Positions 8,371 to 60,911 of a DNA stretch of 64,000 nt are shown here, one piece after another (the first letter of the stretch is position 1; every line of letters begins with the position of its first letter). A program made the translations under genes and the position numbers. The notes below the pieces were generated by a model. The model was not told the DNA's origin. It saw nothing but the letters and a program-made list of their open reading frames with translations, and did not search any database. Source of the stretch: Candidatus Spechtbacterales bacterium (GTDB taxonomy: Bacteria; Patescibacteriota; Minisyncoccia; Spechtbacterales; 2-12-FULL-38-22); the NCBI GenBank assembly GCA_040902285.1, contig JBBDXP010000007.1:1042-65041 (forward strand). The letters are read 5' to 3'.

Positions 8371-8382
8371 AAAAAGGAGTGC

Positions 8383-8673
8383 TTACTCCTTTTTTTTATC
8401 CAGAAGGTTGGTTACATAAATACCTATCAGAACGACTATTAAAGTCACGATTACCGCATAAATAAACTTGGCGGATACGGAATTGCCGTCTTTTGGAAAA
8501 AAATATTCTATTAAAGATTTTATTGCGTCGTTCCACGCCAAACCGGCAACTAGCCCAAATCCTCCGATTATATATGTTGCGGTTCGTTTTCTTATATCTT
8601 TTTTAATTTCGGCAACTTCTTTCGCCACTCTGGCTCTTTTGTTTCTTTTTTTATTTAAATCATTATTTACCAT
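8383..8673 (-). CDS. small membrane protein, hypothetical
   Basis: The ORF has a basic N-terminus and two predicted TM helices. The start was moved to the internal Met (MVNNDL...) to avoid overlapping the rel start. No recognisable family. Confidence 0.35.
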   Translation of the reverse strand: MVNNDLNKKRNKRARVAKEVAEIKKDIRKRTATYIIGGFGLVAGLAWNDAIKSLIEYFFPKDGNSVSAKFIYAVIVTLIVVLIGIYVTNLLDKKKE

Positions 8674-8746
8674 ATAATAAATTGTATCGTTGCCTGTTTT
8701 AATTTGCAAAGACAAATAACTTATAATACGATGTTTTATTAAAAAC

Positions 8747-10909: not shown

Positions 10910-11775
10910 TCCAGCAAACTTTCTATCCAGCGGCGAAGATCGTTTTTGGACGAAAAATGAACCGCGAGATTTGCTCTTTTATCCGTTGTTCTGGCTTTGG
11001 CATCCAGCACTTCAAAAGTTTCCTTGAACCTTCGTAAAAGCTCTGCCATTTCGTTATCTTTCATGCTTCTTGATCCGACTGCCGCGGGTTCTTTTTTCGG
11101 TTTCAATTCCCTGGCCCTCTCTTCCGCCTGCCTTACCGTATAATTACTTGCCAATATTTCTCCAAATAATTTTTCTTGTGCGCCTTGTTCCAAACTCAGA
11201 AGAGGCCGCGTGTGGCCTTCTGATATTTCTCCTCGCTTTAAAGCATCCGTTATACTTGAGGGCAAAGATAAAATTCTAATGGTATTTGCGACATAAGGGA
11301 CAGACCTGGACACTCTGTTTGCGATCTCGCTTTGCTTCATGCCGAATTCTTCCTGGAGTTTTTTAAACGCCTCCGCCTCTTCAACAGCGTTTAAATCGTT
11401 TCTTTGTATGTTTTCTATGAGAGAAACTTCCAGTTTTTGCTTATCTGTTGAATGTCTTATTATAGCCGGCACCCTCGGCAATTTAGCCATTTTGGCGGCA
11501 CGCAATCTTCTTTCTCCGGCTATCAGTTCGTAATCCACTTCCCTGCCTTCCGGCACGTATCTTTCCACCTTGCTTACGATTAAGGGCTGTAAAATCCCGT
11601 AAACTTTAATCGAGTCAGCAAGGTCTTTTAAAGCGTTGAGATCAAATTCGCGCCGCGGCTGGTACGGGTTCGGCTTTATTTGTTCAACATCTATAAGAAA
11701 CACGCTCTCTTTTTTGTCTATTTCGGAGCGTTCTTCGGGTTTTCTTTGTGGTATTAATGATTCTAATCCGCGCAT
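10906..11775 (-). CDS. parB: chromosome partitioning protein ParB
   Basis: GERRLRAAKMAKLPRVPAI is the ParB box. An HTH region is also present. Confidence 0.88.
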   Translation of the reverse strand: MRGLESLIPQRKPEERSEIDKKESVFLIDVEQIKPNPYQPRREFDLNALKDLADSIKVYGILQPLIVSKVERYVPEGREVDYELIAGERRLRAAKMAKLPRVPAIIRHSTDKQKLEVSLIENIQRNDLNAVEEAEAFKKLQEEFGMKQSEIANRVSRSVPYVANTIRILSLPSSITDALKRGEISEGHTRPLLSLEQGAQEKLFGEILASNYTVRQAEERARELKPKKEPAAVGSRSMKDNEMAELLRRFKETFEVLDAKARTTDKRANLAVHFSSKNDLRRWIESLLD

Positions 11776-11785
11776 TTTTTTATTT

Positions 11786-12553
11786 TTAAAAAGAATTTAT
11801 TCTTTGTATTGTTTCTTTTGCCAGTTTTCGGTATGCTTCGGCGCCGGTTGAATACGGATCATATTGGTAAATTGATTTTCCGTATCCTGGAGCTTCCGCC
11901 AAAGATATGTTTCTGGGTATCACAGAATCAAAAACATATCCGGGAAAATTATCTTTTACATTTTTGAGCACATTTCTGCTCAATTTATTTCTTTTATCGT
12001 ACATGGTACACACCGCCCCCAAAATTTCAATATTCCTGCCCAGATTGTCTCTTATTAAGTATACAGTATTTAATAGTTGTCCCAAACCTTCCAGCGCGTA
12101 GTATTCGCATTGAACCGGAGTTAGAATATAATCGGCGGCAACAAGGCCATTAAGCGTGAGAAGACCCAAACTGGGCGGACAATCTATAATAACAAAATCG
12201 TAGTTGTGTTTGACCTGTGCTATGCTGTCCAACAACCTGTATTCCCGCTCTTTTTGGGAAACGAGCTCTATGTGCGCCCCCGACAAATCCGGATTGGAAG
12301 GCAAAATATCAAGAGAAAAAAGCCCGGTCGCGTGTATGGTATCACCAGCCAATACGCCGCCAATTAGTGTATGATACACGTTTGTAGACAGATTGCCGGG
12401 AGAACGGAAAGTCGAAGTTGCGTTGGCCTGCGGATCCATGTCCACAATCAATACTTTTTTGCCGTATGCAGCCAAATACACGGCCAAATTTACAGCCGTA
12501 GTGGTTTTACCGGTTCCTCCTTTTTGGTTGGCTATGGTTATAGCTACTCCCAT
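11786..12553 (-). CDS. parA: chromosome partitioning ATPase ParA/Soj
   Basis: MGVAITIANQKGGTGKTTTAVNLA is a deviant Walker A. The start was trimmed from the 327-aa track ORF to this Met. A plausible TTGTCA-N16-TAAGAT promoter lies just upstream on the minus strand. Confidence 0.88.
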   Translation of the reverse strand: MGVAITIANQKGGTGKTTTAVNLAVYLAAYGKKVLIVDMDPQANATSTFRSPGNLSTNVYHTLIGGVLAGDTIHATGLFSLDILPSNPDLSGAHIELVSQKEREYRLLDSIAQVKHNYDFVIIDCPPSLGLLTLNGLVAADYILTPVQCEYYALEGLGQLLNTVYLIRDNLGRNIEILGAVCTMYDKRNKLSRNVLKNVKDNFPGYVFDSVIPRNISLAEAPGYGKSIYQYDPYSTGAEAYRKLAKETIQRINSF

Positions 12554-12743
12554 ATGGCTAAATCTTACCACAAATGGGCCGATTGACAAATGAATACACG
12601 ATGCTATGTTGGGAATATGAAACATGCCCGGGTGGGTGAAATTGCGAGCAGTGCGCAGCAAGTTCACGGGTTCAAAAGAACCCCGGACCACCACCCGGAA
12701 CAGTTTTTTGTCTAAGTCCTGCGGAGCAGGACGAGAAATATAT

Positions 12744-12830
12744 GCCCGGGTGGTGGAACTGGCAGACACGCTGGACTCAAAATCCAGTGGTAGAAATACC
12801 GTGGAGGTTCAACTCCTCTCCCGGGCACCA
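12744..12830 (+). tRNA. tRNA-Leu (anticodon CAA), type II with long variable arm, CCA encoded
   Basis: The acceptor stem GCCCGGG pairs with CCCGGGC. The anticodon loop is CTCAAAA and the variable arm is long. The T-arm is GGTTCAACTCC and the sequence ends ACCA. Confidence 0.85.
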
Positions 12831-12869
12831 TTTAAGAAATTAAAATTTAATAAAAAAATATTTTAAATC

Positions 12870-13733
12870 ATGCAAAATTTGAACAAAGCAATAATTGATT
12901 TTATTTTGCCGTGGCTTCTGGAACACGGCATCCGTATAGCCATTATAGTGGTTGGTCTTTGGATAGCGCATAAATTCGCGGAGGCAATACTAAGCAAGAC
13001 CATAAGAAAAATGGTCAAAACAGACAGGTTTGCAAGCGAAGAAGAAGAAATAAAAAGAGAGGACACGATTATAAATATAATGGTTATATCTATACATGTG
13101 GCCATATGGGTCCTTGGCGGACTTATGATTCTGTCCGAAATAGGAATAAATATAACCCCGCTAATAGCCGCGGCCGGAATAGGAGGCCTTGCTTTCGGTT
13201 TTGGAGGACAATATCTTATAAGCGACCTTATAAGCGGTTTGTTTATAATACTTGAAAACCAATACAGGATTGGGGATGTGGTATGTTTTGACAAGACATG
13301 CGGATTGGTGGAAAAGATAACGCTTCGCAGAACAATTCTCAGGGACTTAGACGGCACAGTACACAATGTACCCAATGGCCAAATAAAGACCGCTTCCAAT
13401 CTGTCTCATGAATACGCCCGTGTAAACTTGAACATAGGGGTTGATTATTCAACAAATTTGGAAAAAGTAATAAAAGTAATAAACAGAGTTGGTAATGAAC
13501 TGACCGAAGATAAGAATTGGAAAGAAGACATAATAAAAACACCTCAATTTCTTCGGGTTGATGAGTTTGCGGATTCAGCGATAGTAATTAAAATACTCGG
13601 AGAAACAAAACCTCTCAGACAATGGGATGTAACCGGCGAATTAAGAAAACGGCTTAAGATCGCTTTTGATAACGAAGGTATTGTAATACCCTTCAATCAG
13701 CTTGTTTTGCATAAAGCTCCGGAGAACGGCTAG
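12870..13733 (+). CDS. mscS: small-conductance mechanosensitive channel (MscS family)
   Basis: It has N-terminal TM helices and the MscS beta-domain segment GDVVCFDKTCGLVEKITLRRTILRDLDGTVHNVPNGQI. Confidence 0.8.
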   Translation: MQNLNKAIIDFILPWLLEHGIRIAIIVVGLWIAHKFAEAILSKTIRKMVKTDRFASEEEEIKREDTIINIMVISIHVAIWVLGGLMILSEIGINITPLIAAAGIGGLAFGFGGQYLISDLISGLFIILENQYRIGDVVCFDKTCGLVEKITLRRTILRDLDGTVHNVPNGQIKTASNLSHEYARVNLNIGVDYSTNLEKVIKVINRVGNELTEDKNWKEDIIKTPQFLRVDEFADSAIVIKILGETKPLRQWDVTGELRKRLKIAFDNEGIVIPFNQLVLHKAPENG

Positions 13734-13736
13734 AAT

Positions 13737-14975
13737 CTAAGAACCTTCGGGCACTGATCCGGCGGTTTCTTTGGCAATTTCCATGGGATCGATTTCCATC
13801 GGATCTTCTTTCATTAAAATAAATCCCAAAGAAAGAAATCCTGCCATTAAAAACACTATTGCCAAGTTGTCGGTAAACAAAAACACTAAAGCTAAAAATA
13901 AAAGAAAGACCCCGCGGGAAACATTTAAAGCTATCTCGCGCACTATTACGAGCCGGTCCCGGGTCGTTTTATATTTTCCGGCCCAGTCATAAAATATGGC
14001 GGCAAAAGGTATAAAGGCGGAATACGAACCGAAATTATGCAAAGTGTGAGCCAAAAAAGCATCGAAGGGTGTTCGTACAAACATTTTTATGGGCCAGAAA
14101 ACGGCGTTCAGAATGGATCCTATGGTCAGCAATTTCTCCGGCCCCATTTTATCCGATGCCTTGCCTATGAAGTATATAAATATCATTCCTATTACAAGAG
14201 CGGAAGAAATAATGGCGCCCAATTCTTCAAAACTTATTGCCAGCATAAAAAGATATAGAGGCCATATATAAGCATGGACGGCAAATTCCGCGCCCGCAAA
14301 CCCGAGAGCTGCAACTTTCGCCCTCCTGTTCTTTTTTAAAGTTTCTCTAAAGGCCTGCGTGAAATCATCCGGGTATTCTTCTTTTATTTCTTGGGATAAA
14401 AACAATGGTATTGTGGACGCAAATAATAAGGCAAGAACAATGGCGAAAAGTTCCGGAAATCCAAAAAATGTTATTACTAACCCCCCAACAAGCGGTCCAA
14501 AGGCCGAGGCAAGTGAAATAACGATATTGGCAACTCCCACTTCCTTGCCGCGCTTACCTTGTTCGGAAAATCTGGCAAAATCAATATGGAAAGCCGGCCA
14601 GTAGAGCAGGTTATGCATGACATGAAACGGAATAAGTATCAGAAAAAAGATACCTAATTTTTCTATTTGCCAAAGAGCCAGAAAATATAAAAACAGAAAC
14701 GGAACACTCCAGAGCATTGCGTGTTTTATGCCTAGCCGTGTGAGCATTTTTCCTCCAAAAGGCGCAAGCACACCGAACAAAATGGATACAATCGCAAAAT
14801 AAAGAAGAGTTAATGGAATAGATCTGTCAAAAAAAAGGAAGATATATATTGGTTCGAATATACCTACTAAAGAAATTGCAAACCCCCGTATAGCAGTAGA
14901 AGCATATAATTCTCCAAGTTCTTTATTGAAATGCGGCGATAGCCGGGCAAGATGCCCGTGCGTTAATAAAGCCAT
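13737..14975 (-). CDS. MFS-type transporter
   Basis: A 412-aa polytopic membrane protein with about 12 predicted TM helices and MFS-like loop motifs. Confidence 0.55.
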   Translation of the reverse strand: MALLTHGHLARLSPHFNKELGELYASTAIRGFAISLVGIFEPIYIFLFFDRSIPLTLLYFAIVSILFGVLAPFGGKMLTRLGIKHAMLWSVPFLFLYFLALWQIEKLGIFFLILIPFHVMHNLLYWPAFHIDFARFSEQGKRGKEVGVANIVISLASAFGPLVGGLVITFFGFPELFAIVLALLFASTIPLFLSQEIKEEYPDDFTQAFRETLKKNRRAKVAALGFAGAEFAVHAYIWPLYLFMLAISFEELGAIISSALVIGMIFIYFIGKASDKMGPEKLLTIGSILNAVFWPIKMFVRTPFDAFLAHTLHNFGSYSAFIPFAAIFYDWAGKYKTTRDRLVIVREIALNVSRGVFLLFLALVFLFTDNLAIVFLMAGFLSLGFILMKEDPMEIDPMEIAKETAGSVPEGS

Positions 14976-14981
14976 AACGAA

Positions 14982-15629
14982 TTATAAATTTAGTTTTTTG
15001 CCGAATATATTTGACATTTTTTCGAGCGTTGTCTGGTTCATGCGCAGAACCAGGGGTTCATCTCTGGTTATATCCAAAACGGTCGAAGGTTCTGCGGCAG
15101 AAATATCTCCGGCATCCACAACAAGATCGGGCAGTACGGAATGTTCTTTAAATTGAGCCAGTATTTCGGAAATATTTCCCGTCGGCTGCATTCCCGATAC
15201 ATTCGCGGAAGAGCCCGTAACAGGTCCTCTAAATTCATTTAACAGAGCCCGGCAAAAATCGCTATCGGGAACACGCAAACCCACTTTTTGGGTGTTAGCC
15301 GACAGACGCAAGCTTATTTTGTTTTTTTTGAAAAGCACTAAAGTGAAAGGGCCCGGCCAAAATTTGTTCAATATGCTATCCTGTCGGCTGTCTATAAAAG
15401 CCAGCTCTTTCGCCATTTTGATACCTTTAACAAAAATTGGCACGGGTTTGTTCGCGGGCCTTTTTTTAAGATAAAACAATCTCTCTATCGCGTCTTTACG
15501 CAAGGCATCCGCTCCCAAGCCATATAAAGTATCGGTTGGGAAAATAATAACGCGCCCTTGCTTCAAAGCATTTGACGCTTTTTTAACCGTATCTAAAAAA
15601 TTTTCTTCAGTTAATTTTATCCGCTCCAT
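14982..15629 (-). CDS. tsaC: L-threonylcarbamoyladenylate synthase (YrdC/Sua5 family)
   Basis: VIIFPTDTLYGLGADA is the YrdC signature. Confidence 0.8.
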   Translation of the reverse strand: MERIKLTEENFLDTVKKASNALKQGRVIIFPTDTLYGLGADALRKDAIERLFYLKKRPANKPVPIFVKGIKMAKELAFIDSRQDSILNKFWPGPFTLVLFKKNKISLRLSANTQKVGLRVPDSDFCRALLNEFRGPVTGSSANVSGMQPTGNISEILAQFKEHSVLPDLVVDAGDISAAEPSTVLDITRDEPLVLRMNQTTLEKMSNIFGKKLNL

Positions 15630-15635
15630 TTAATA

Positions 15636-16649
15636 TTATAAGTTCATCAATTGTTTCATTATATCCGCCAATTTATCCGAATCGTGCCGTATAAGAGTTC
15701 TTCTTAAAGCATCGTTGGGATCGTGTTCCGGTATTTTACTGTCTAAAAGATCTGTTCCCGCGAATCTTTTATCTTTTTCTTCGTTTTTTATGACAAGCGG
15801 CTGGTCTGTTGTGTTAAGTTTTTCCAAAATTCTGCCGCTTATGTTTGCGGTATTGTATACAACATGATCAAAAACGTCTCCGCCAAAAAGTTTTTTAAAA
15901 TGCAATAGGTAATCATTTATCGAATAATCCTTGGTGGATTTTTGCTGATTCATCAAATTTGCCGTATAGATCTTTTTAGCCCTGCTCTTTTTTATACCGG
16001 ACCTGATGCCCCTTACCATTAATGGCGGCGTTAAACTGGCAAAAAGATTTCCCGGTCCTATTAATATAAAATCCGCTTCCTTTATAACTTTTTCGGTCTT
16101 TGGGTTGGCAGCTCCCCGCGGCGTCAATTCAAGTTTATCAAGCTTTTTATTCAATCCTTTTATTTTAGTTATGCGCGCCTCCCCTTTTATTTTCCTTCCG
16201 TCTTTCAAGTGGGCCCATATATCAGTGGGGTATGTTGTAACGGGAACGATGGAATGTTCGGACCCGAAAATTTTCTCTGCCTCTTCTATCGCTTTTTGAA
16301 AATCTCCGTGATGTTGCCACAATATTGCTAAAAATAAATTTCCAAATGTATGCCCCTTTAAACTCCCGCCGCCAAATCTGGTGTTGAAATGAGAGAGTAT
16401 TGGATGATTGTGGTCATTAAGCGCGACAAAACATTGCCTGGCGTCTCCCGGAGGAACCATGCCTATTTCCTTTCTTAACCTACCGGAAGAACCTCCCGTA
16501 TCAGCTGTTGTTATAACGGCCGATAATCTAAGCGGCAGTTTTTTAAGGCCGCGCAAAAGTATAGAGGTACCTGTACCTCCGCCTATAACTACGACTTTCT
16601 TTTTTCTGACATTTTCCATTTTGTTTAGTATAACATTGCTTCGTTTCAC
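15636..16649 (-). CDS. yvcK: YvcK/UPF0052 (CofD-like) family protein, gluconeogenesis factor
   Basis: VVVIGGGTGTSILLRGLK is the N-terminal motif of the family. Confidence 0.8.
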   Translation of the reverse strand: MKRSNVILNKMENVRKKKVVVIGGGTGTSILLRGLKKLPLRLSAVITTADTGGSSGRLRKEIGMVPPGDARQCFVALNDHNHPILSHFNTRFGGGSLKGHTFGNLFLAILWQHHGDFQKAIEEAEKIFGSEHSIVPVTTYPTDIWAHLKDGRKIKGEARITKIKGLNKKLDKLELTPRGAANPKTEKVIKEADFILIGPGNLFASLTPPLMVRGIRSGIKKSRAKKIYTANLMNQQKSTKDYSINDYLLHFKKLFGGDVFDHVVYNTANISGRILEKLNTTDQPLVIKNEEKDKRFAGTDLLDSKIPEHDPNDALRRTLIRHDSDKLADIMKQLMNL

Positions 16650-19223: not shown

Positions 19224-21683
19224 TTAGATAACCAGATTAACGACTTTGTTTTTGACCGCTATAGTTTTTTTAGGTTTTTTATCTCCCAAAATTTCCTTTA
19301 TTCTTTCGCTTTCCAAAGCGCTTTTAATTAAACGGCCTTCTTCCGTGTTGTTTTCCACTTCGATTTGAGCCCGTAGTTTTCCATTAATCTGCACGGGCAC
19401 GGTTATAATTTCCTGCTTCGTAATTTTTGCGTCAAACTCAGGCCAGACAGCATCGTGCACGCTTCCTTTTTGGCCTAAGCGTTCCCATAGTTCCTCTGTA
19501 ATATGCGGAGCGAAAGGCGCCAGCAAAACAAGCAGAGTTTCTATATCTTCGGGCGAGTGTTCATTTTCATAAAGCGCGTTCACATATGCCATCATAGCGG
19601 CAATAGCGGTGTTGTAATGCAAGCGTTCAATATCTTCCGTTACTTTTTTTATTGTCTGATGTTTTATCTTTTGTAAATTCTGTTTTGAGTTTGTCTCTTG
19701 CCTGCCTGCCGAAGCCTCTGCGGAGGCAGGTTGCTTGCCTGCCTGCCCCGTACTGGACTTGTCCTGGTACGGGGTTGTTTGTCTCTGAACGAGCCCCCAT
19801 ACTCTTCCTAAAAATCTATGAACTCCGCGTATGCCTTCGTCCTGCCAATCTCCCCCTTCGGCTAAAGGACTTAAAAACATAAGGTATGTGCGAAGAGTAT
19901 CGGCGCCAAATGCTTCAAAAAGCTCATCGGGATTCACAATATTTCCTTTAGATTTGCTTATTTTTGACCCTTCTTTTACCAGAAGGCCATGCGCCCTAAA
20001 TTTCTTAAAGGGCTCTTCGAAATTAAGAAGTTTTTGATCGCGCATAAACATAGTTATAAAGCGTGCATACATTAAATGAAGCACGGCATGTTCCTGGCCT
20101 CCAATATACATATCCACCGGCAGCCATCTTTCGGTTATTTTTTTATCCCATGCTATATTTTTTTCTCCGGAACTGGGATAGCGCAAAAAATACCATGAAG
20201 AATCCAGAAAAGTGTCCGAAACATCCGTTTCTCTTTTTGCCCTGCCCGCGCACTTGGGGCATTTTACATTTACAAATTCTTCAACGGCGGCAAGCGGAGA
20301 TTTATCGGTGCCTGTCGGCTGGAAATTTTCCACATAAGGCAGCAGCACGGGCAAATCCTTTTCGGCTACGGGTACCGTGCCGCAATTGTCGCAATATATT
20401 ATGGGTATTGGAGGCCCCCAATAGCGTTGGCGCGATATGAGCCAATCACGCAAATGATAGTTTACCTGAGGAATACCGCCTACGCTTTTTCCAATTTTTT
20501 CCCTAGCTTCTGATGAGGATATGCCATTGAATTTTTCCGAACCAACCAGATGGCCTTCTCCTTCATACGCTTTTTCCAAGACCGGGCATATTTTTTCCGG
20601 ATAATTCTGGCATATTACCTGTTTTGAAGGCAAGCCGTATTTTTTCGCAAATTCAAAATCTCTCTGGTCATGCGCGGGAACCGCCATTACAGCACCTGTT
20701 CCATATTCAGCTACAACATAATCCGATATCCAAACCGGTATTTCTTCTTTATTGGCGGGATTTATGGCGCTGATACCCTTCAGCTCAATCCCCGTTTTTT
20801 CATTGTTCTTGGTCTGTTTTTTGCTTTCGGATTTGTTTATATATGTTTCAATCTCTTTTTTATTGGTGATTGGTAATTGGGAAATTAGTTCATGTTTTGG
20901 GGACAACACAATATATGTCGCTCCGAACAAAGTATCCGCTCGTGTTGTGAAGATTTCGATTGAAAATTGAGAATTGAAAATTGGAAATTTTATACGGTAC
21001 CCCGTGCTTTTGCCTATCCAGTTGCGTTGCGCGATCTTTGTGTGTTCGGACCAGTCAATATTTTTAAGATTTTCCAATAATCTGTCCGCATAATCGGTTA
21101 TTTTTAAAAACCATTGGTTTAAATTTTTGCTTTCAACAACCGAATCGCATCTTTCACATCTTCCCGATATCACCTGCTCGTTAGCGAGAACGGTTTTACA
21201 ACTCGGGCACCACTGAACGGGAGCTTCTTTTTTGTACGCAAGACCTGCTTCGTAGAATTTTAAAAAAATCCACTGGGTCCACTTATAATATTCCGGATCA
21301 GTGGTGTTTATTATGTTATCCCAGGAATAGATGTTCCCGATGTATTCCAATTGTCTTCGAAAATTATCCGTACTTTTCTTTATTAGTTCCCTTGGGTGTA
21401 TGCCTTTTTTTAGAGCAAAATTTTCGGAATGAATCCCGAACGCGTCAAATCCTATTGGTTCAAAAACATCGTATCCTTTCTGCCGCATATAGCGTCCGTG
21501 TATATCCGAACCCACAAACGCGTAAAGATTGCCTATATGCAAGCCCTCCGCCGAAGGATAGGGAAACATCATTAGGTTATAATAGGGCTTTTTGTCCCCT
21601 TTTATATCAACCTGCCACCTCGCGTCGCGTATCCATTTTTCCCGCCACTTTTTCTCTATTTTTTGCGGATTATATTGTTCCAT
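19224..21683 (-). CDS. leuS: leucyl-tRNA synthetase carrying an in-frame GC-rich repeat insertion
   Basis: HIGNLYAFVGSDIHGRYMRQKGYDVFEPIGFDAFG is the HIGH region and a KMSKS-like SKSKGN is present. The low-complexity insert STGQAGKQPASAEASAGRQETNSKQ is encoded by the repeat at 19690-19790. Confidence 0.9.
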   Translation of the reverse strand: MEQYNPQKIEKKWREKWIRDARWQVDIKGDKKPYYNLMMFPYPSAEGLHIGNLYAFVGSDIHGRYMRQKGYDVFEPIGFDAFGIHSENFALKKGIHPRELIKKSTDNFRRQLEYIGNIYSWDNIINTTDPEYYKWTQWIFLKFYEAGLAYKKEAPVQWCPSCKTVLANEQVISGRCERCDSVVESKNLNQWFLKITDYADRLLENLKNIDWSEHTKIAQRNWIGKSTGYRIKFPIFNSQFSIEIFTTRADTLFGATYIVLSPKHELISQLPITNKKEIETYINKSESKKQTKNNEKTGIELKGISAINPANKEEIPVWISDYVVAEYGTGAVMAVPAHDQRDFEFAKKYGLPSKQVICQNYPEKICPVLEKAYEGEGHLVGSEKFNGISSSEAREKIGKSVGGIPQVNYHLRDWLISRQRYWGPPIPIIYCDNCGTVPVAEKDLPVLLPYVENFQPTGTDKSPLAAVEEFVNVKCPKCAGRAKRETDVSDTFLDSSWYFLRYPSSGEKNIAWDKKITERWLPVDMYIGGQEHAVLHLMYARFITMFMRDQKLLNFEEPFKKFRAHGLLVKEGSKISKSKGNIVNPDELFEAFGADTLRTYLMFLSPLAEGGDWQDEGIRGVHRFLGRVWGLVQRQTTPYQDKSSTGQAGKQPASAEASAGRQETNSKQNLQKIKHQTIKKVTEDIERLHYNTAIAAMMAYVNALYENEHSPEDIETLLVLLAPFAPHITEELWERLGQKGSVHDAVWPEFDAKITKQEIITVPVQINGKLRAQIEVENNTEEGRLIKSALESERIKEILGDKKPKKTIAVKNKVVNLVI
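19690..19790. repeat. GC-rich palindromic CCTGCC/GGCAGG element, copy A (two hairpin units), in frame inside leuS
   Basis: TTTGTCTCTTGCCTGCCTGCCGAAGCCTCTGCGGAGGCAGG + TTGCTTGCCTGCCTGCCCCGTACTGGACTTGTCCTGGTACGGGG + TTGTTTGTCTCTG. It is flanked by a TTTGTCTCT direct repeat. GC is much higher than the surrounding AT-rich coding sequence. Confidence 0.55.
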
Positions 21684-41635: not shown

Positions 41636-41986
41636 GGGAGCGGCTTACGCGGCTTCGATAAGTTCTTATTAGTATAAATTGCAGATCGAGTGCGCCTGAA
41701 TCTCGCAAAACTTCGGGCAACCCTTTAAGTGCAAACAAACAACCAGCACTTGCTTACGCATAAATTCCGTAAGCCATCGCACTAAATGATTCCTGATAGT
41801 TTAGATGCGGTGTCATTCATCAGGATAGCCAAACGCTCGTCCGCGCGTTCGGTGAAAATTAGGGCTAGGATATTACGGTGTTTTGTTTATTTTTTAGCCG
41901 TTTTATCCGAACAATAAAAATAAACTATATCTGTAGACATTTATGCCGATACGGCTTACACAGGGGTTCGAATCCCCTCGCTTCCA
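41636..41986 (+). ncRNA. ssrA: tmRNA (ssrA), ~351 nt
   Basis: The 5' GGGAGCG pairs with the 3' CGCUUCC, including a G3:U70 alanine identity pair. The T-arm is GGGGTTCGAATCCCC, then discriminator A. The internal tag ORF GCA AAC AAA CAA CCA GCA CTT GCT TAC GCA TAA encodes ANKQPALAYA* at 41731-41763. It is located immediately after smpB. Confidence 0.8.
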
Positions 41987-42014
41987 CATTAGTGTTAAAA
42001 ATTTAAGTTAAAAT

Positions 42015-48900: not shown

Positions 48901-50247
48901 CTAAAGATATAATTTACTGAACTCTTCCCTTGCTACCTGCCTGTCATCCCACGGCACAGGCCCCTTAGCGGTCATCATTAAGGGCTCCGCACCCTTTCCG
49001 GTTATAATTACATTATCGCCTTCTTTGGCTTTTTTCAATGCTTCTCTTATTGCCTGTCGCCGATCTAAGATTTTTTCGTAGTTTATTTCTTGTTTCTTGT
49101 CTGCCTGCCGAAGCCCTGTCCGTCCGGCAGGCGGGCTCGGCGCAGATAGGTATCTTGTGTCTTCAGAAAGTCCCGATTCAATATCCTTTAGAATACTTTC
49201 GGGATTTTCTGTGTAGGGATCTTCGTCCGTTAAAATTATTTCATCGCAATGTTCGCTTGCGATTTCTCCAAGCTTGGGTCTTTTCCATTTGTCCCTGCCT
49301 CCGCCTGCGGCTCCCAGAACGCATATAGTTCTTCCACCCTTTTTTTGCCGTAATTGCTCCGATACCGTGTTGTAAACTTTCTCCAAAGCATCGGGTGTAT
49401 GGGCATAATCAACAACAACATTAAATGGCTCGCCTATAACTACTTCAGCTCTGCCCGGCACGCCCGGAAAGCTTGATAATATATCGGCCATTTTATCCAT
49501 GGGTATTCCCTGCGCTCTGCCTGCGCCTATCGCGGCTAAAACATTATACGCGTTAAATTTCCCGAGAATGGGAATTGAAAATTTATTATCCCTTATATAA
49601 AAATTTATGCCCCTGTCCTCCAGTTTTAATTTTTCGGCAAGTATTTCCTCTGTGCCAAGTGAAGCACTGCCGGGATTGAGCGTATATCCAATTTTTTCAA
49701 TAGCCGGAAATTGCAGGAAATAATTGGCATTTTCATCGTCCAAGTTTACCACGGAAGCCCTGTGGCGCAAAGAAAAGAATTTGCCTTTCGCGTTTTTGTA
49801 ATTTTCAAAAGAACCGTGGCTCTCTATATGTTCGGGGGTCAAATTAGTAAATACGGCGGTATCAAATTCAATAAATTTATGTCTGTTTTGCCTAACGCCC
49901 TCGCTTGTAACTTCTATTACCGCGAACTGGCAACCGGCATCCGCCGCCTTGCGCAAAAACAGATGCAGTTTCATCCTTCCCGGCATTGTCATTTTAAGCT
50001 TGTTGGGCCATTCTTCGTTGCCTATTTTAAATCGCAGCGAAGAAATAGAAGCAGTTTTATAACCGGCGTTTTCCAGCAAATAAGAACAAAGATGTGCTAC
50101 GCTTGTTTTGCCGTTAGTGCCAGTGATACCGATAACTTTTATTTCTTTTGAAGGGTGTCCGTAAAGAAAAGCGCCCAAAGCGGGCCATGCGGAATGATAC
50201 GCTTCCAATACTGAAGGTGGGATAAATTTTTTGATTAGTTCTTTCAC
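48901..50247 (-). CDS. murE: UDP-N-acetylmuramoyl-tripeptide ligase MurE, probably L-Lys-adding type, with an in-frame GC-rich repeat insertion
   Basis: GITGTNGKT is the P-loop. TNLTPEHIESHGSFENYKNAK is the Mur central domain. LGAAGGGRDKWKRPKLG...ILTDEDPYTENP occupies the place of the DNPR motif. The C-terminal GKGAE motif is present. The insert LSAPSPPAGRTGLRQADKKQ sits near the C-terminus. Confidence 0.75.
   Translation of the reverse strand: MKELIKKFIPPSVLEAYHSAWPALGAFLYGHPSKEIKVIGITGTNGKTSVAHLCSYLLENAGYKTASISSLRFKIGNEEWPNKLKMTMPGRMKLHLFLRKAADAGCQFAVIEVTSEGVRQNRHKFIEFDTAVFTNLTPEHIESHGSFENYKNAKGKFFSLRHRASVVNLDDENANYFLQFPAIEKIGYTLNPGSASLGTEEILAEKLKLEDRGINFYIRDNKFSIPILGKFNAYNVLAAIGAGRAQGIPMDKMADILSSFPGVPGRAEVVIGEPFNVVVDYAHTPDALEKVYNTVSEQLRQKKGGRTICVLGAAGGGRDKWKRPKLGEIASEHCDEIILTDEDPYTENPESILKDIESGLSEDTRYLSAPSPPAGRTGLRQADKKQEINYEKILDRRQAIREALKKAKEGDNVIITGKGAEPLMMTAKGPVPWDDRQVAREEFSKLYL
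49095..49146. repeat. GC-rich palindromic element, copy B, in frame in murE
   Basis: TCTTGTCTGCCTGCCGAAGCCCTGTCCGTCCGGCAGGCGGGCTCGGCGCAG is near-identical to copy C. Confidence 0.55.
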
Positions 50248-51158
50248 AGGATATTTTTTATTCTATATAAAATATACCAAAAACGGCTAATAGGAAGATC
50301 GAAACTGCCCAAGTATTTTACTTCTTTTCCACCGAAACCTTTTTTAAAACGAGTTAAGCCGGGCCATTTTTTTTCATTAATTCCCCAAAGGTCATAATAC
50401 CCCAGAGATTCTCTTTTTGCATCTCGGATTATTTTCCAGTGCATAAGATAAGGCGCCATATGCTTTCTTAATTTGTAATCGGACGCTCCATGCAAATATG
50501 TGGCTGTGTTTCCGGCAAATACGACTATCGCGGCGGATGCGAGCTTGCCGTCTTTATACGCGATATATAGGCGCGCAATATCCATATCCAAAAGCTTTTT
50601 GTAATAATCTTTTGTATGCGTACTGAATTTATCGCGAAGTGCTGTGTCCAAAATCAACGACCACCACATATTAAAATCGGTCTGTTTATTTTTTGATAAA
50701 ACCGCTTCAACTCCCCGTTTTTGGGCCACGCGCAAATTGTATCTGGTCTTTTGTCCCATTTGCCCAAGAAGCTTTTCTTCGCTTTCTTTAAGATCTAAAA
50801 CTATGGTTTTCTGCGGCTGGAGTTCTTTGCTCGATTTAACAAAACCAAGCCGGCTTAATCCTTGTCTCTTGCCTGCCTGCCGAAGCCCTGCCCGTCCGGC
50901 AGGCGGGCTCGGCGCAGGCAGGTTGTTTGTTGCTTGTTGTTGTACAAGTGGCTCCCACTTAAAAAATATCGCGCCCTCAGCGCGTCCGATATTTTTTATT
51001 TCCTCCAAATATTCAAGCGCGTCGGGATAATTGGAATACAGATAACTTTTTCCCAAAGGAACATCCAGCTTAATCATGTACCCCGCGCCTAAATCAAAAC
51101 TCTTGCGCCCGGTGCTTTCCTGAAATTTTCTCCATTGTGGCAAGTTAAGAAAACTCAT
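50244..51158 (-). CDS. FemAB-family peptidoglycan interpeptide-bridge aminoacyltransferase (putative) with an in-frame GC-rich repeat insertion
   Basis: Length and composition fit FemX/FemAB GNAT-fold transferases. It is adjacent to the Lys-type murE. The insert NNLPAPSPPAGRAGLRQAGKRQ is encoded by repeat copy C. Confidence 0.5.
   Translation of the reverse strand: MSFLNLPQWRKFQESTGRKSFDLGAGYMIKLDVPLGKSYLYSNYPDALEYLEEIKNIGRAEGAIFFKWEPLVQQQATNNLPAPSPPAGRAGLRQAGKRQGLSRLGFVKSSKELQPQKTIVLDLKESEEKLLGQMGQKTRYNLRVAQKRGVEAVLSKNKQTDFNMWWSLILDTALRDKFSTHTKDYYKKLLDMDIARLYIAYKDGKLASAAIVVFAGNTATYLHGASDYKLRKHMAPYLMHWKIIRDAKRESLGYYDLWGINEKKWPGLTRFKKGFGGKEVKYLGSFDLPISRFWYILYRIKNIL
50862..50945. repeat. GC-rich palindromic element, copy C, in frame in the femAB-like gene
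   Basis: CTTGTCTCTTGCCTGCCTGCCGAAGCCCTGCCCGTCCGGCAGGCGGGCTCGGCGCAGGCAGG followed by a TTGTTTGTTGCTTGTTGTTG tail. The arms are inverted repeats (CTGCCTGCCGAAGCCC.../...GGGCTCGGCGCAGGCAG). Confidence 0.55.
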
Positions 51159-51736
51159 TATTTTTGGCCCAAAATTTTTAATGCCTCTTTTACTTTATCT
51201 TCCGTGCGTTCCAAGTCCTCGGGTATTTGTTTTAAAACACTTTGCGCCTGTTGCCTAGAATACCCCAAACTCTCCAGCGCTTCAACAACATCACTCTCTC
51301 CTCGTATGTCTCCGGCAAGAGCGCCCCATTCGGTTCCAAATTTGTCTTTTAGTTCAAGTATTATTTTTTGGGCTATTTTATTTCCTATGCCGGACACCCT
51401 GGTCAGTATGGAGGTATCGCCTTCGGCAATGGCCCTCTGAAGCATGTTTATGGGCGCCGCGTTCAGAATATTTAGAGCGCCTCTTGGGCCCACGCCTGAA
51501 ATTTTAATTAGAATTTCGAACATATTGCGTTCTTCCTTCTCTAAAAATCCGTAAAGCTCGGCTGTGTTTTCGCGCAAATAATAATGTGTAAACACTTCTA
51601 TGTCTTGTCCTGTTTTTTTAGATAAATCATCCGCTGTTCTTGCCGCGCATTGAATCTCATATCCTACGCCTCCAACCTCGACAACAGCCGAATTTTTACC
51701 CGTTTCTCTAATTGTGCCTTTTAACAAAGCTATCAT
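51158..51736 (-). CDS. ruvA: Holliday junction branch migration protein RuvA
   Basis: MIALLKGTI...VVEVGGVGYEI is the RuvA domain I motif. HhH motifs are present. Confidence 0.88.
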   Translation of the reverse strand: MIALLKGTIRETGKNSAVVEVGGVGYEIQCAARTADDLSKKTGQDIEVFTHYYLRENTAELYGFLEKEERNMFEILIKISGVGPRGALNILNAAPINMLQRAIAEGDTSILTRVSGIGNKIAQKIILELKDKFGTEWGALAGDIRGESDVVEALESLGYSRQQAQSVLKQIPEDLERTEDKVKEALKILGQK

Positions 51737-51746
51737 GTTTTTATAG

Positions 51747-51834
51747 TCGAGGATACGAGCGAAAAGAAAAAGATTAAATCATAGAAAGCTTGCTTTCAAA
51801 GATTTAAGATTTTTCTTTTCCGAGCGCCGCAGAC
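51747..51834. repeat. AAAAGAAAA hairpin element, locus 1 (upstream of ruvA)
   Basis: CGAGGATACGAGCGAAAAGAAAAA-[38-nt insert containing the GAAAGCTTGCTTTC palindrome]-ATTTTTCTTTTCCGAGCGCCGCAGAC. It shares about 45 nt with locus 2 at 60591-60650. Confidence 0.45.
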
Positions 51835-51856
51835 TATATAGTATTACTTAATAGTA

Positions 51857-53611
51857 TTACTTATATTTTAACATCCGTAGGAACTTATTGAGAGGAAGCG
51901 TGTTTATAATATCACTTTTCTTTGCCCAGCCACGGCGCGCCTGCGCTATTCCGTATTCCAAAAACTTAAAATGCTCCTTCGCATGCGCGTCCGTGTTGAT
52001 GCACATTTTTGCCCCGATTTTTACGGCCATGAGTATGTACTCGTCACGCAAATCAAGACGTTCCGGACTTCCATTTATCTCAAGAATGGTGCCGGTTCTT
52101 TTTGCCTCCCTTATTATTGCTTCCATATCCACATCGTAAGGGGGCCTTATATTTATACGCCTGCCTGTAGGATGAAACAACATATCCACATTCGGATTAT
52201 TCATCGCCTTGATTATGCGCTCGGTCTGCTCTTTTCTGGATAAATTAAAATGGGAATGCACAGATACGCCGACAACATCCAGTTGTTTTAAGACCTTATC
52301 CTCTATATCCAAAGAGCCATCTTTTAAGATATCGCATTCTGTGCCGGCAAGAATAGTTATGCCCTTTAGTTTTTTGTTTAATTTTTTTATTTCAGCTTTT
52401 TGTTTCAATATCTTTTCTCCGTTAAGTCCATTTGTCATCGCAAGATTTTTGGTGTGGTCCGTTATGGCTATATATTCAAGGCCTTCATCTTTTGCGACTT
52501 TTGCCATTTCTTCTATGCTGTCTTTTCCGTCTGTCCAATTTGTCTGCACCTGCAAATCGCCCTTAATTTCGCCGTATTTAATTAGATTGGGCAATTTTTT
52601 CTTTTGCGCCAATTCTATTTCGCCAGAATCAGTGCGCAATTCGGGAGGCATACATTCCATGCCGAGTTTTTTGTAAATCAAGCATTCATCAGTACCCGGA
52701 GCCACATTTTCTCTACCTTTAAAAAGCCCGTATTCGTTCAGTTTGTATTTTTTTGATATGGCTATTTTTCTGAGTTTTACATTGTGGTCTTTGCTTCCCG
52801 TAAAATATTGCAATGCGGCCCCATAACTCTCTTTTGAAACAACGCGTATATCAATATCAAACCCCCGTTTTAAATGCACGGATATTTTGGTTTTCCCTCT
52901 CCCCCACACCTTAACAACGCTTGGCAGATTAGCCGCATAATCCAAAACCTTTTTGCTATCTGATGCTTGTCCTGAGCCCGCCGAACGGACGGCAACAAGT
53001 ATATCCACATCTCCTATGGTTTCCTGTCTGCGTCTTAAAGAACCCGCTTCTGAAACTTCTATTACTCCCTTAATCTCTTTTATTTCTTCAATCAACTCGC
53101 GAGAATATGGCAAAATTCCTCCCAAGGGTATTCTGCCCCCGGAACTTTTTACAAACTCTATTCCTTGCGCTATATTCTCTTCCGTCTTTTTGCCCAATCC
53201 CTCCACCTTGCTAAGTTTTCCTTTTTTTACCGCATCTTCCAAATCTTTCAGAGTTTTTATGTTAAGTTCTTCATAAAGTTTTTTGGCCGTTTTAGGGCCT
53301 AGACCTTCAACGGAAGTAAGTTCTTCAAGATTAGCGGGCATTTCTTTTTTCAGCTTTTCATATTCTTTCACATGCCCTGTTTTTATATATTCCTCTATTT
53401 TTTCGGACATGCCTTTTCCAATGCCCGCCAAAGCATCCAGGCCTTTAAGTCCGTTTTCTTTGTAGATAAGTTTTAAATCTTGCGCCAAATCGCTTATGGT
53501 TTGTGCTCCTCTGTGTAGTGCGCGCTGGCGAAACCTGTCGTTTTTAATCTCATACAGCAAGGCCATTTCTTCAAATATATGGGCTATTTCTTTGTTTGTT
53601 TCAAGAGTCAT
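51857..53611 (-). CDS. polX: family X DNA polymerase with C-terminal PHP phosphoesterase domain
   Basis: It has HhH motifs. GSLRRRQETIGDVDILVA is the Pol-beta nucleotidyltransferase motif. The C-terminal PHP domain carries ITDHT. Confidence 0.85.
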   Translation of the reverse strand: MTLETNKEIAHIFEEMALLYEIKNDRFRQRALHRGAQTISDLAQDLKLIYKENGLKGLDALAGIGKGMSEKIEEYIKTGHVKEYEKLKKEMPANLEELTSVEGLGPKTAKKLYEELNIKTLKDLEDAVKKGKLSKVEGLGKKTEENIAQGIEFVKSSGGRIPLGGILPYSRELIEEIKEIKGVIEVSEAGSLRRRQETIGDVDILVAVRSAGSGQASDSKKVLDYAANLPSVVKVWGRGKTKISVHLKRGFDIDIRVVSKESYGAALQYFTGSKDHNVKLRKIAISKKYKLNEYGLFKGRENVAPGTDECLIYKKLGMECMPPELRTDSGEIELAQKKKLPNLIKYGEIKGDLQVQTNWTDGKDSIEEMAKVAKDEGLEYIAITDHTKNLAMTNGLNGEKILKQKAEIKKLNKKLKGITILAGTECDILKDGSLDIEDKVLKQLDVVGVSVHSHFNLSRKEQTERIIKAMNNPNVDMLFHPTGRRINIRPPYDVDMEAIIREAKRTGTILEINGSPERLDLRDEYILMAVKIGAKMCINTDAHAKEHFKFLEYGIAQARRGWAKKSDIINTLPLNKFLRMLKYK

Positions 53612-59474: not shown

Positions 59475-60911
59475 CTATTTCCTTATATAACTATACCCCG
59501 CCCCCAGCAATATCCAGAACATAAGCCCGCCCTGCTGTATGGTCAGGTAAAAATGGTCAAAAAGCCCTCCAGTGATAATAAACACTGTTGCCGAAATGTA
59601 AAATAATCCCAATATGTCTTTTTGTGCCGAATATTTTTTTAAAAAATATCCAAACATTACCGTTATAAATAAAATAAAAACGATGAGCGCGAGTACTCCC
59701 GATTCGGCCGCCAAAAGCAAAAATATATTGTGTACCGGCTGATACAGGCGGTCGTGCAGACCTGAAAAAACATCGCGCAAATAAAGCGTGTAATTTCCCG
59801 CGCCAACGCCGAAAAAGTTCTGAGATATAACCTGCAGGGAAAGGTTATTAAAAAATAATCTTTCCCTGATGGCCAGGTCGCCACGGGCAAAAGCGGTCAA
59901 AACTCTGCTGTAAACTTCGGGCCAGAAAATTAAGGTGAACAAAAACGCCGCCGAAAACATTGGCGCCAGGGCAAAAAACATTTTTTTCTTTAAATGCCCA
60001 AATTGTCTTGAAAACAAGATCGCAAAAATATAAAAAATTACAACCAGTAAAAATGCAAAAATAACGGCTCTGGAAAAAGTAAGTATCAGTCCTATTCCGA
60101 TTATCACCGTTCCCGTCCATGTAAAAAACAGTTGTTTGCGCACTGGTCCTTTTTTCCAAAAAAACCATGTGAGCAAGAAAAGAAACGAAATCCCCAAAAA
60201 TGCCGCAAGAACATTGGGACTGCTAAATGTTCCATATGCACGCATAAAGCGGGCGCCAAAAGCGACAAATTCGGCAACTTCCTGCCGGCCGGCTACAAGG
60301 TGTGGCTCGCCTAAAAGATAAAAACCCAGAGATTTTTGGAATGCAAACTGGCCAATAGCTAAAATCCCCTGAAAAATTCCGGATAAAGAAAACGCAAGCG
60401 CAATTTTTAAAAACGACACGCGTTTTAGGATATCTGCGGTATAAAAGAACAAAAAAATAAATTCTATAAGTTTTATAAATCGATAAACCGCAACGCCTTT
60501 GTACCCTGCAAATAGTATGGAAATACCAACAAGAATTACAAAAAGAACTAACCAAAATATGGGCCTTTTAAAAATCCTAAATCCAAAATCTGGGTGCCGA
60601 GGATAGTGAGCGAAAAGAAAATTCATTTTCTTTTCCGAGCGACGCAGGCATAAACGCAAGTGCTCAATCCGAAACAAATTCCAATGACCAAGATTAAAAA
60701 TTCCAGTTTTTTTTCTTGTAAACAAGGGCTTTAGTCGTCTGGATATCCAAAAACAAAAAAGCAGCGCAATCAGTATATCCGTTCCATACAAAAAAACGCT
60801 CTGCCACTCGTTAAACCCCTCAACCGCTCCCGCGCCCCACAAAAAAACCCTCGTTTGAAAAGGGATTGAAAAAACAAGCAATAAAAATACAAGTTTTTCT
60901 AATTTCAACAT
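59475..60911 (-). CDS. O-antigen ligase/polymerase-like (Wzy_C) polytopic membrane protein
   Basis: A 478-aa protein with more than 10 TM helices and a large periplasmic loop. Its N-terminal region contains the AAAAGAAAA hairpin repeat (locus 2) in frame. The alternative start MNF at 60626 sits exactly in the hairpin loop. Confidence 0.45.
   Translation of the reverse strand: MLKLEKLVFLLLVFSIPFQTRVFLWGAGAVEGFNEWQSVFLYGTDILIALLFCFWISRRLKPLFTRKKTGIFNLGHWNLFRIEHLRLCLRRSEKKMNFLFAHYPRHPDFGFRIFKRPIFWLVLFVILVGISILFAGYKGVAVYRFIKLIEFIFLFFYTADILKRVSFLKIALAFSLSGIFQGILAIGQFAFQKSLGFYLLGEPHLVAGRQEVAEFVAFGARFMRAYGTFSSPNVLAAFLGISFLFLLTWFFWKKGPVRKQLFFTWTGTVIIGIGLILTFSRAVIFAFLLVVIFYIFAILFSRQFGHLKKKMFFALAPMFSAAFLFTLIFWPEVYSRVLTAFARGDLAIRERLFFNNLSLQVISQNFFGVGAGNYTLYLRDVFSGLHDRLYQPVHNIFLLLAAESGVLALIVFILFITVMFGYFLKKYSAQKDILGLFYISATVFIITGGLFDHFYLTIQQGGLMFWILLGAGYSYIRK
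60591..60650. repeat. AAAAGAAAA hairpin element, locus 2
   Basis: CCGAGGATAGTGAGCGAAAAGAAAA-TTC-ATTTTCTTTTCCGAGCGACGCAGGC is near-identical to locus 1 apart from the loop length. Confidence 0.45.

Follow-up and report, generated by a model that had tools for sequence, protein, structure and literature searches.

A hairpin shared by ruvA and an O-antigen-ligase-like gene of a Candidatus Spechtbacterales bacterium is probably a dispersed palindromic insertion element

In a 64,000-nt stretch of DNA from a Candidatus Spechtbacterales bacterium (assembly GCA_040902285.1, contig JBBDXP010000007.1; the whole stretch is hereafter called the window), the same hairpin-forming sequence occurs beside the recombination gene ruvA (locus 1) and inside a gene for an O-antigen-ligase-like membrane protein (locus 2), where an ATG lies at its tip. 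Why should a recombination gene and an envelope gene share such a sequence? An earlier sequence-only reading offered two answers, a hairpin that sequesters a start codon or an intergenic regulatory hairpin captured in a coding region. Our analysis indicates that both loci are probably copies of a ~50–65-nt non-coding, non-autonomous palindromic insertion element, similar to repetitive extragenic palindromes (REPs) and Rickettsia palindromic elements (RPEs), that is dispersed in Patescibacteria and in a few other metagenome-assembled genomes (MAGs). Close relatives differ in whether they carry the element at a given site, and it lies mostly between genes and occasionally in frame in tolerant protein loops. 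Loci compared with the window carry L numbers below, and proteins carry P numbers.

The hairpin noticed at both loci proved to be real. Its common core of ~50 nt, at 51743–51837 and 60594–60651, reads CGAGGATA..GAGCG-AAAAGAAAA-loop-TTTTCTTTT-CCGAGCGNCGCAG. Both loci share CGAGGATA, GAGCGAAAAGAAAA, TTTTCTTTTCCGAGCG and CGCAG, and each arm occurs exactly twice in the window. When up to two mismatches were allowed, GAGCGAAAAGAAAA was observed seven times, against a mean of 2.1 in dinucleotide shuffles, none of which reached seven; the right arm had no further close match in the window. A covariance model built from other genomes recovered locus 2 at 66 bits (66.2; E 3e-17) and locus 1 at 33–39 bits, and found nothing else above noise, leaving only two element copies in the 64 kb. 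The well-formed fold lies on the plus strand, antisense to the ruvA and ligase mRNAs. At locus 2 the core hairpin (60597–60648, plus strand) is composed, from its 5′ side inward, of the 5′ loop CGAGGATA, a 2-bp middle stem, a tandem G·A, a G–C pair and a bulged C; the tip is a 10-bp stem, GAAAAGAAAA/TTTTCTTTTC, with the 4-nt loop TTCA (first read as the 5-nt TTCAT), and the 3′ loop is GACGCA. Beyond the shared core each copy has an outer stem of its own, that of locus 1 being ATAGTC/GACTAT and that of locus 2 TGCC/GGCA. The complete locus 1 hairpin (51743–51837, plus strand), with the same core and an extended tip, folds at −32.9 kcal/mol (z = −6.1) and matches the model at 51746–51833 with 39 bits. 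Its tip extension at 51771–51810 (plus strand) takes the place of the 4-nt loop; it measures 40 nt rather than the 38 nt first counted, and forms a hairpin in its own right. The extension is capped by GAAAGCTTGCTTTC (51784–51797), a CUUG tetraloop closed by a G–C pair. The same 14-mer recurs exactly in L009, where it caps a neighbouring hairpin, and this was the sole match to the 40-nt tip in all fetched DNA. The long form of locus 1 could be either ancestral or a nested insertion.

Locus 1 lies between two genes on the minus strand, as are all genes around both loci: a polX-like gene (51857–53611; identified by Pfam) upstream and ruvA (51158–51736; Pfam RuvA_N, HHH_5 and RuvA_C matched from residue 1, ATG at 51736) downstream. 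In L091 (GCA_033721955.1) and L089, whose RuvA proteins are 70–77% identical to that of the window, only 4–5 nt separate the stop codon of polX from the ATG of ruvA (..ATGTTAAAATAAAGTATATG.. and ..ATGTTAAAATAAACATATG..). Alignment with these two relatives revealed a block of ~122 nt at 51742–51863 (plus strand) that is absent from their junctions. It consists of the hairpin and a tandem 13-mer, ATAGTATTACTTA (51838–51850 and 51851–51863), the second unit of which carries the polX stop codon; comparison of the C termini gives polX two codons more than in the relatives. The covariance model found no element copy in L088–L092, and the 163-nt polX–ruvA spacer of L092 holds a different palindrome, CCTGCCTGCCGGTAGGCAGG. 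Because the relatives' junction is empty and L092 has another palindrome there, the element is not a conserved ruvA control region. The ruvA copy is a recent insertion, given the 4–5-nt junction of the relatives, and the apparent cis-element common to ruvA and an envelope gene therefore reflects dispersal of a repeat rather than co-regulation. The two genes, which once almost abutted, now have between them, on the mRNA, a hairpin of about −31 kcal/mol that ends 6 nt before the ruvA start codon (6 nt from the outer stem and 11 nt from CGAGG, not ~22 nt as first stated). The inserted hairpin may affect polX–ruvA coupling, processing or stability; any effect on the expression of either gene would be a side effect of a stable mRNA hairpin and not its purpose.

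Next, we asked where the gene hosting locus 2 begins. The reading frame at 59475–60911 (minus strand) encodes a 478-aa protein with a Pfam Wzy_C domain, whereas the NCBI product P0001 begins with MNFLFAHYP at an in-frame ATG at 60624–60626 (minus strand; 60626–59475 is 1152 nt, that is 383 codons and a stop). The sequence-only reading was right that this ATG is in frame, although it does not lie wholly in the loop: read on the minus strand (60626–60624), it spans the last stem base and the loop. Twenty homologues of 440–490 aa cover the full 478-aa frame, and the first 60 residues are strongly conserved (SIPFQTRVFL..EGFNEWQS.FLYGTDIL). Because these upstream residues are conserved in all 20, the gene starts at 60911 and the loop ATG is incidental. 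The NCBI 383-aa call is truncated by 95 residues and begins at an ATG supplied by the insert.

The residues encoded by the hairpin fall in a hypervariable linker between the first two hydrophobic segments (transmembrane segments 1 and 2), which ranges from 0 to ~60 residues among homologues, and the closest homologue, P0002 (62% identical, from the syntenic locus L038), has a gap at this segment. We place the insertion at 60598–60663 (minus strand; boundaries inferred), an in-frame block of 66 nt or 22 codons encoding LRLCLRRSEKKMNFLFAHYPRH that comprises the element, an 11-nt tail and a second copy of GTGC, the first being at 60594–60597. Without the 22 residues LRLCLRRSEKKMNFLFAHYPRH, the linker GHWNLFRIEH/PDFGFRIFK (junction at the slash) aligns without a break to GHLNLFRIS--IFGFRIFK of P0018. 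The host protein has thus gained 22 mostly basic linker residues and is otherwise intact. At the nucleotide level no clean empty site was found for locus 2, the nearest ligase homologues being 43–70% identical and a MAFFT alignment of the linker DNA unhelpful. By these sequence comparisons, both window copies are lineage-specific insertions. Of the proposal that an intergenic-type regulatory hairpin was captured in a coding region, the capture is supported; the word regulatory is not, the ruvA copy too being a recent insertion. The linker around the insertion (60540–60600 and 60660–60720; L088 1395–1500) is in turn composed of imperfect short repeats, GGAATTT, GGATTT and CGGATT, encoding NLFRI..FGFRIF, and the linker of P0018 holds a tandem TTCGGATTTCGA unit, which suggests that the ligase linker also grew earlier by repeats.

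How widely the element occurs was examined with exact-core scans of one genome per GTDB species and of JGI metagenomes, and with the covariance model; all family members were retrieved via the window's own stem sequence. The exact core was present at 37 genome loci and 49 metagenome loci, and with the model 71 full-length copies, divergent ones included, were recovered from 59 sources. By record label, the hosts belong mainly to Saccharibacteria, Moranbacteria, Nomurabacteria, Sungiibacteriota and further Patescibacteria; some MAGs labelled Bacteroidales and three labelled 'Gammaproteobacteria' are among them as well. The flanks of different copies are unrelated, and 148 neighbouring open reading frames (ORFs) have no gene family in common. 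About 60 of 70 copies are intergenic, with 11 between convergent and three between divergent genes. Where the neighbouring genes are co-directional, the structured strand is antisense to them in 15 cases and sense in five, and it is antisense in both clear in-ORF copies. The second of these lies in another Wzy_C-type gene (L014, Moranbacteria), in a different protein loop and a different frame (ALARKRKLIFFSLTSL), which rules out selection on the peptide. No frame of the core meets a stop on the antisense strand, while TAG and TGA stand on the structured strand, which accounts for the orientation of the surviving in-ORF copies.

Genes for tRNA adjoin about 15 of 60 loci, an enrichment. Several Saccharibacteria copies (L001, L005, L007, L022, L030 and L006/L026) sit in 150–190-nt modules beside tRNA genes, bounded by duplicated tRNA 3′ ends of 16–18 nt and sometimes arranged in tandem arrays. 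At L022, L007 and L030 the element is found within the T-loop of a partial second tRNA copy next to the intact gene, and at L020/L021 and L066 the duplicated flank includes the tRNA 5′ end. Another copy (L079, 1695–1746) precedes the 5′ end of a 16S rRNA gene (..AGAGTTTGATCCTGGCTCAG) by ~40 nt and has the orientation of that gene. The Bacteroidales-labelled loci L024 (5335–5572) and L053 (2791–2923) have the same architecture with longer stems, in intergenic tandem arrays with a period of ~87 nt that gave no Rfam match.

The copies share a fold of fixed design. Read in the plus orientation from the outside inward, this three-tier hairpin consists of the copy-specific outer stem, a conserved internal loop (5′ side loosely YARG.., 3′ side ..CGCM), a 2–3-bp stem, the tandem G·A, one G–C pair, a bulge of one pyrimidine and a 10-bp A/T-rich stem with a 4-nt loop. 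The 2–3-bp stem covaries freely, its innermost pair being CG in 35 copies, UA in 20 and UG in 12. The G–A facing G–A (5′-YGAR/5′-YGAR; G12, A13, G91 and A92) is invariant in 67 distinct copies, with a flanking pair that is always Y–R, and the bulged base is C in 63 of the 67. A symmetric 5′-YGAR/5′-YGAR context favours tandem sheared G·A pairs in DNA and RNA alike. Overall, 94% of cells were paired and 12 of 14 pairs had changes on both sides, a level reached in none of 500 shuffles, and slid controls gave 36–72%; the alignment was fitted to the model, and a DNA palindrome would show like covariation. Fully compensated stems occur in relatives, namely UAAAGAAAA/UUUUCUUUA and AAAAUAAAA/UUUUAUUUU in L038 and AAAAACUAAAA/UUUUAGUUUUU in L037. 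G–T wobbles outnumber A–C mismatches by 19 to 5, and therefore the fold belongs to one strand.

Several features point to mobility and to a hairpin that works at the level of DNA. The syntenic relative L038 has no copy in its ligase gene and two copies elsewhere, one of them after an amino-acid transporter gene; the orthologous spacer in the window is empty and holds ATTATAAATATAGTGTTT (~17 nt) once, whereas L038 has an imperfect copy of ATTATAAATATAGTGTTT on either side of the element. Direct repeats of 10–18 nt flank copies in L001, L005, L007, L015, L021, L022, L026 and L066. Over the family, flanking direct repeats of at least 9 nt were found for 14% of copies versus 2% of mismatched-flank controls (at least 12 nt, 6% versus 0.1%), and outer stems of at least 6 bp for 55% versus 18%. 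The outer stem derives from the flank: the bases after the core are an inverted copy of those before it in both window copies (ATAGT/ACTAT at locus 1 and GTGC/GCAT at locus 2), in L038 (TAA/TTA) and, over 14 nt, in L020/L021. The 4-nt loop also occurs as reverse-complement pairs, both in one subfamily (CAAG in L046, L060 and L076 versus CTTG in L047, L058 and L080) and between orthologous loci (CGCT in L020 versus AGCG in L021), TTCA/TGAA being a further such pair; the loop changes its orientation, whereas the hairpin's asymmetric base does not. Other palindromes are nested in or beside copies at L080, L067/68 and L014/32. Searches for a vector yielded no match: an exact-pattern scan of IMG/VR gave 0 matches, and blastn searches of phage (50,697) and plasmid (72,556) records gave none either, although the low-complexity filter may have masked the A/T stem in them.

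On this basis we suggest that the element spreads as DNA, by way of a single strand in folded form. Its hairpin, with the G·A and the bulge, might be recognised by an enzyme acting in trans. Alternatively, a nascent or displaced single strand containing the core could fold back, copy a few flank bases and re-prime upstream in a template switch; fold-back switching would explain both the inverted copy of the left flank after the core and the direct repeats of ~9–18 nt that bracket many copies. We consider the fold-back route and a dedicated G·A/bulge-recognising enzyme equally possible. A more far-reaching proposal is that this is a mobile hairpin of an undescribed kind, in which a Patescibacteria-wide factor recognises the G·A and bulge as folded single-stranded DNA or RNA, and which spreads by fold-back and template switching with three marks (the inverted flank, a long and variable direct repeat, and the loop flip-flop), landing by preference where hairpins abound: at tRNA 3′ ends, in the T-loops of fragmentary tRNA genes, at gene junctions and in other palindromes. 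This we regard as tentative, and somewhat doubtful as a whole. If true, genomes of the candidate phyla radiation (CPR), thought to be poor in mobile DNA, would carry a layer of mini-palindromes nested in one another, by which intergenic junctions and protein loops are remodelled.

Several observations weigh against an insertion element. The apparent conservation is in part a selection effect of retrieving copies through the window's own stem, and the hosts outside Patescibacteria are assigned by record label. The flank repeats differ in length, are imperfect and could be detected for no more than a minority of copies, and the boundaries of the window insertions rest on relatives that are 43–77% identical. 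A Pfam census of the 148 ORFs within 3 kb of copies showed no family in more than three ORFs and no transposase or integrase among the families listed (a second batch of 92 ORFs lay outside the scan), and no autonomous parent element was identified. Moreover, a near-identical core across deep lineages with an invariant G·A and bulge exceeds what a selfish palindrome needs; such conservation could mean a selected RNA or protein-binding function.

This last point leads to the main rival, a functional structured RNA, either a small RNA gene or a cis motif (processing site, terminator, stabiliser or protein-binding hairpin) that was duplicated around the genome and whose G·A and bulge bind a conserved Patescibacteria protein. 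The strand-specific, invariant non-canonical features and the covarying helices fit such an RNA, as do the tRNA-gene enrichment, the copy 40 nt upstream of the 16S gene, a second small hairpin with a U-rich tail that follows many copies in the structured orientation (L037, L022, L018, L009/L036, L035 and L002), and a TATAAT-like hexamer 12–18 nt upstream of the core (L009, L012, L036, L014 and window locus 1). However, no Rfam family matches, the structured strand prevails in antisense both between co-directional genes and within ORFs, and neither promoter-like nor terminator-like sites occur on the plus strand at the window copies. Loops flip to their reverse complement, which is unexpected if the RNA depends on its loop but says little if the loop is not recognised, and the presence or absence in close relatives together with the flank duplications shows mobility, whatever the RNA does. 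We therefore judge a functional RNA unlikely as the primary explanation of the family.

The two regulatory explanations fare far worse. If the membrane protein started at the loop ATG (60626), with the hairpin sequestering that start for translational control and an equivalent device on ruvA, then the position of the ATG at the boundary of a 10-bp stem and the NCBI annotation, which begins there, would make sense. But the upstream residues are conserved as protein, the very observation that the sequence-only reading had named in advance as speaking against this idea; the segment is missing from the closest homologue and lies in a linker of variable length; and relatives lack the ruvA copy. Furthermore, the mRNA carries the complement strand, whose fold at locus 2 is poor (−12.7 kcal/mol, z = −0.96), and copies do not conserve the loop ATG: loops in at least 60 copies include TTTA, CTTG, CAAG, TTAA, TGAA and others, and an ATG at the stem–loop junction in the mRNA sense appears only in TTCA-loop copies (TGAA on the mRNA strand) such as locus 2, L007 and L048. 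Start-codon sequestration is, on these grounds, hardly credible. A double-stranded operator, in which the inverted repeat GGAAAAGAAAA-N4-TTTTCTTTTCC would bind a dimeric transcription factor co-regulating ruvA, the ligase-like gene and others, is very improbable as well. It would account for an inverted repeat that is perfect over 10 bp, keeps a fixed 4-nt spacing and is conserved across lineages, and for copies in divergent promoter regions (L012, L003 and L053). Yet most copies are at gene 3′ ends, between convergent genes (11 versus three divergent) or in ORFs; a duplex has no use for the one-strand asymmetry (G·A, bulge and G–T wobbles) or for the covarying stems beside it; and the stem changes by compensatory substitution in L038, L005, L007 and L037. 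The neighbouring genes have no shared function, and no conserved co-occurring regulator or consistent promoter placement was seen.

Compared with known repeat systems, the palindromic insertion element behaves most like RPEs and also comes close to REP-type palindromes, including bacterial interspersed mosaic elements (BIMEs). [quoted passage not shown] RPEs are ~150 bp long, occur only in Rickettsia and have been described as coding for a conserved peptide; they insert in frame and leave genes intact, and the enzyme that mobilises them is unknown (PMC10969869). Like them, the element is a short palindromic repeat that codes for nothing by itself and is scattered through a reduced genome, both between genes and, in frame, within unrelated ones: we found 71 dispersed copies, with in-frame copies in two Wzy_C genes whose ORFs remain intact. 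As RPEs are described, the element differs in being ~50–65 nt, mostly intergenic, spread over several Patescibacteria lineages and built on an invariant tandem-G·A/bulge core; its encoded peptide depends on the frame of each copy, and its host here is Candidatus Spechtbacterales.

REPs and BIMEs, mobilised by REP-associated tyrosine transposases (RAYTs, of the Y1 HUH type), and the end hairpins of IS200/IS605 are small imperfect palindromes in which recognition of one strand in its folded form keeps mismatches and bulges conserved. They are mostly extragenic, lie at gene 3′ ends and are biased in orientation with respect to genes and replication; each REP family is specific to a species or genus, and neither REP nor IS200/IS605 insertion is known to make a target duplication. 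The element is likewise an imperfect, mostly extragenic and strand-specific hairpin with an orientation bias. In contrast to REPs, it has no GTAG-type tetranucleotide 5′ of the hairpin (only the loose YARG of the column composition), its core is near-identical across deep lineages and many copies are bracketed by 9–18-nt repeats; no RAYT or TnpA gene was found among the 148 ORFs within 3 kb of copies, the neighbourhoods to which this search was confined.

With MITEs such as Correia/NEMIS, ERIC, RUP, BOX and Chunjie (PMC10969869), the element shares that it is non-autonomous, multi-copy and mostly intergenic, forms a hairpin when transcribed and occasionally inserts in frame. MITEs have terminal inverted repeats from a parent insertion sequence (IS) and a target duplication of fixed length (PMC10969869). 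Here the whole element is one hairpin, no parent IS was found, flank repeats of 4–18 nt accompany a minority of copies and a short inverted flank copy is added. Integron attC sites, too, are imperfect palindromes that work as single strands in folded form; like the element, they conserve certain extrahelical or mismatched bases and vary in their terminal structure, which in the element is the 4-nt loop of locus 2 and the 40-nt hairpin of locus 1. However, the copy-specific outer flanks carry no GTTRRRY, the R/L box consensus of the attC core sites R″/R′ (RYYYAAC ... GTTRRRY), there are no cassette arrays and no integrase context, and the neighbours are unrelated housekeeping genes.

Established RNA families and motifs were considered separately. 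Rfam at gathering thresholds, run on the window and 19 loci, returned only tmRNA (transfer-messenger RNA), tRNA and rRNA, and at permissive E-values locus 1 and the L024 array gave only hairpin-driven sub-threshold matches. The best of these was RF01699 (Clostridiales-1 RNA), which aligned the long locus 1 hairpin, with its GCUUGC tip, to the first hairpin of the model at 28.3 bits (E 2e-4; gathering threshold 48). We rejected it: the other two hairpins of its three-way junction were unmatched and would fall in the polX coding sequence, and locus 2 gave no match. A scan for sigma-70-like promoters found nothing at the elements of either window locus. No intrinsic terminator, that is, a G+C-rich stem directly followed by a U tract, was found at either locus on either strand; in other genomes, U-rich tails follow some of the copies. 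A K-turn, a hammerhead core, domain V of group II introns, a small ORF with an AGGAG Shine–Dalgarno sequence and a CsrA GGA site were all rejected on reading the sequences, because the bulge size or consensus bases that they need are not conserved across copies.

Finally, the element is not the only short palindrome in these genomes. A separate G+C-rich repeat family (..TTGCCTGCCTGCCGAAGCCCTG.CCGTCCGGCAGGCGGGCTCGGCGCAGGCAGG..) occurs in the window at 49083–49163, 50855–50935 and 19691–19716, with copies inside a Mur-ligase ORF (48901–50247, minus strand) and a FemAB ORF (50244–51158, minus strand). The window FemAB has ~19 extra residues (..ATNNLPAPSPPAGRAGLRQAGKRQG..) relative to its L091 orthologue, and therefore this family also inserts in frame. 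Related short palindromes (CCTGCCTGCCGGCAGGCAGG) are inserted in the element copy of L080 and in the polX–ruvA spacer of L092. A 705-aa Wzy_C-like ORF of Moranbacteria GW2011_GWC2_37_8 (L014, 4040–6154, minus strand) contains the 22-nt palindrome AATTGTTCCACGTGGAACAATT about a dozen times, read in all three frames (IVPRGTI, LFHVEQL and CSTWNN), as well as one hairpin element. Streamlined Patescibacteria genomes thus carry at least three kinds of mini-palindrome: the hairpin element, the G+C-rich CCTGCCTGCC..GGCAGGCAGG and, in Moranbacteria, AATTGTTCCACGTGGAACAATT.

Such mini-palindromes enter gene junctions, each other and, in frame, proteins, and bring about variation in the linkers and loops of membrane proteins and the expansion of operon junctions. 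For annotation, the consequence is that the ligase-like gene was called 95 residues short through the ATG of the insert, and similar errors are likely wherever palindromes land in genes. The apparent regulatory link between recombination (ruvA) and envelope genes is removed. Under a mobile-DNA or an RNA reading alike, an invariant G·A/bulge hairpin that extends across deep lineages and is absent from Rfam offers a handle for finding the factor that recognises it.

Elsewhere in the window, a tmRNA gene (41636–41989; tag ANKQPALAYA) and a tRNA-Leu(CAA) gene (12744–12830) bear no relation to the hairpin element. The GC skew of the plus strand flips at about 8000–16000, from +0.10 (1–8 kb) to between −0.09 and −0.14 (16 kb onward), which may mark a replication terminus or origin or a mere switch of gene strand. 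The structured strand of the element is, in the window, the C-rich strand, lagging by GC skew.

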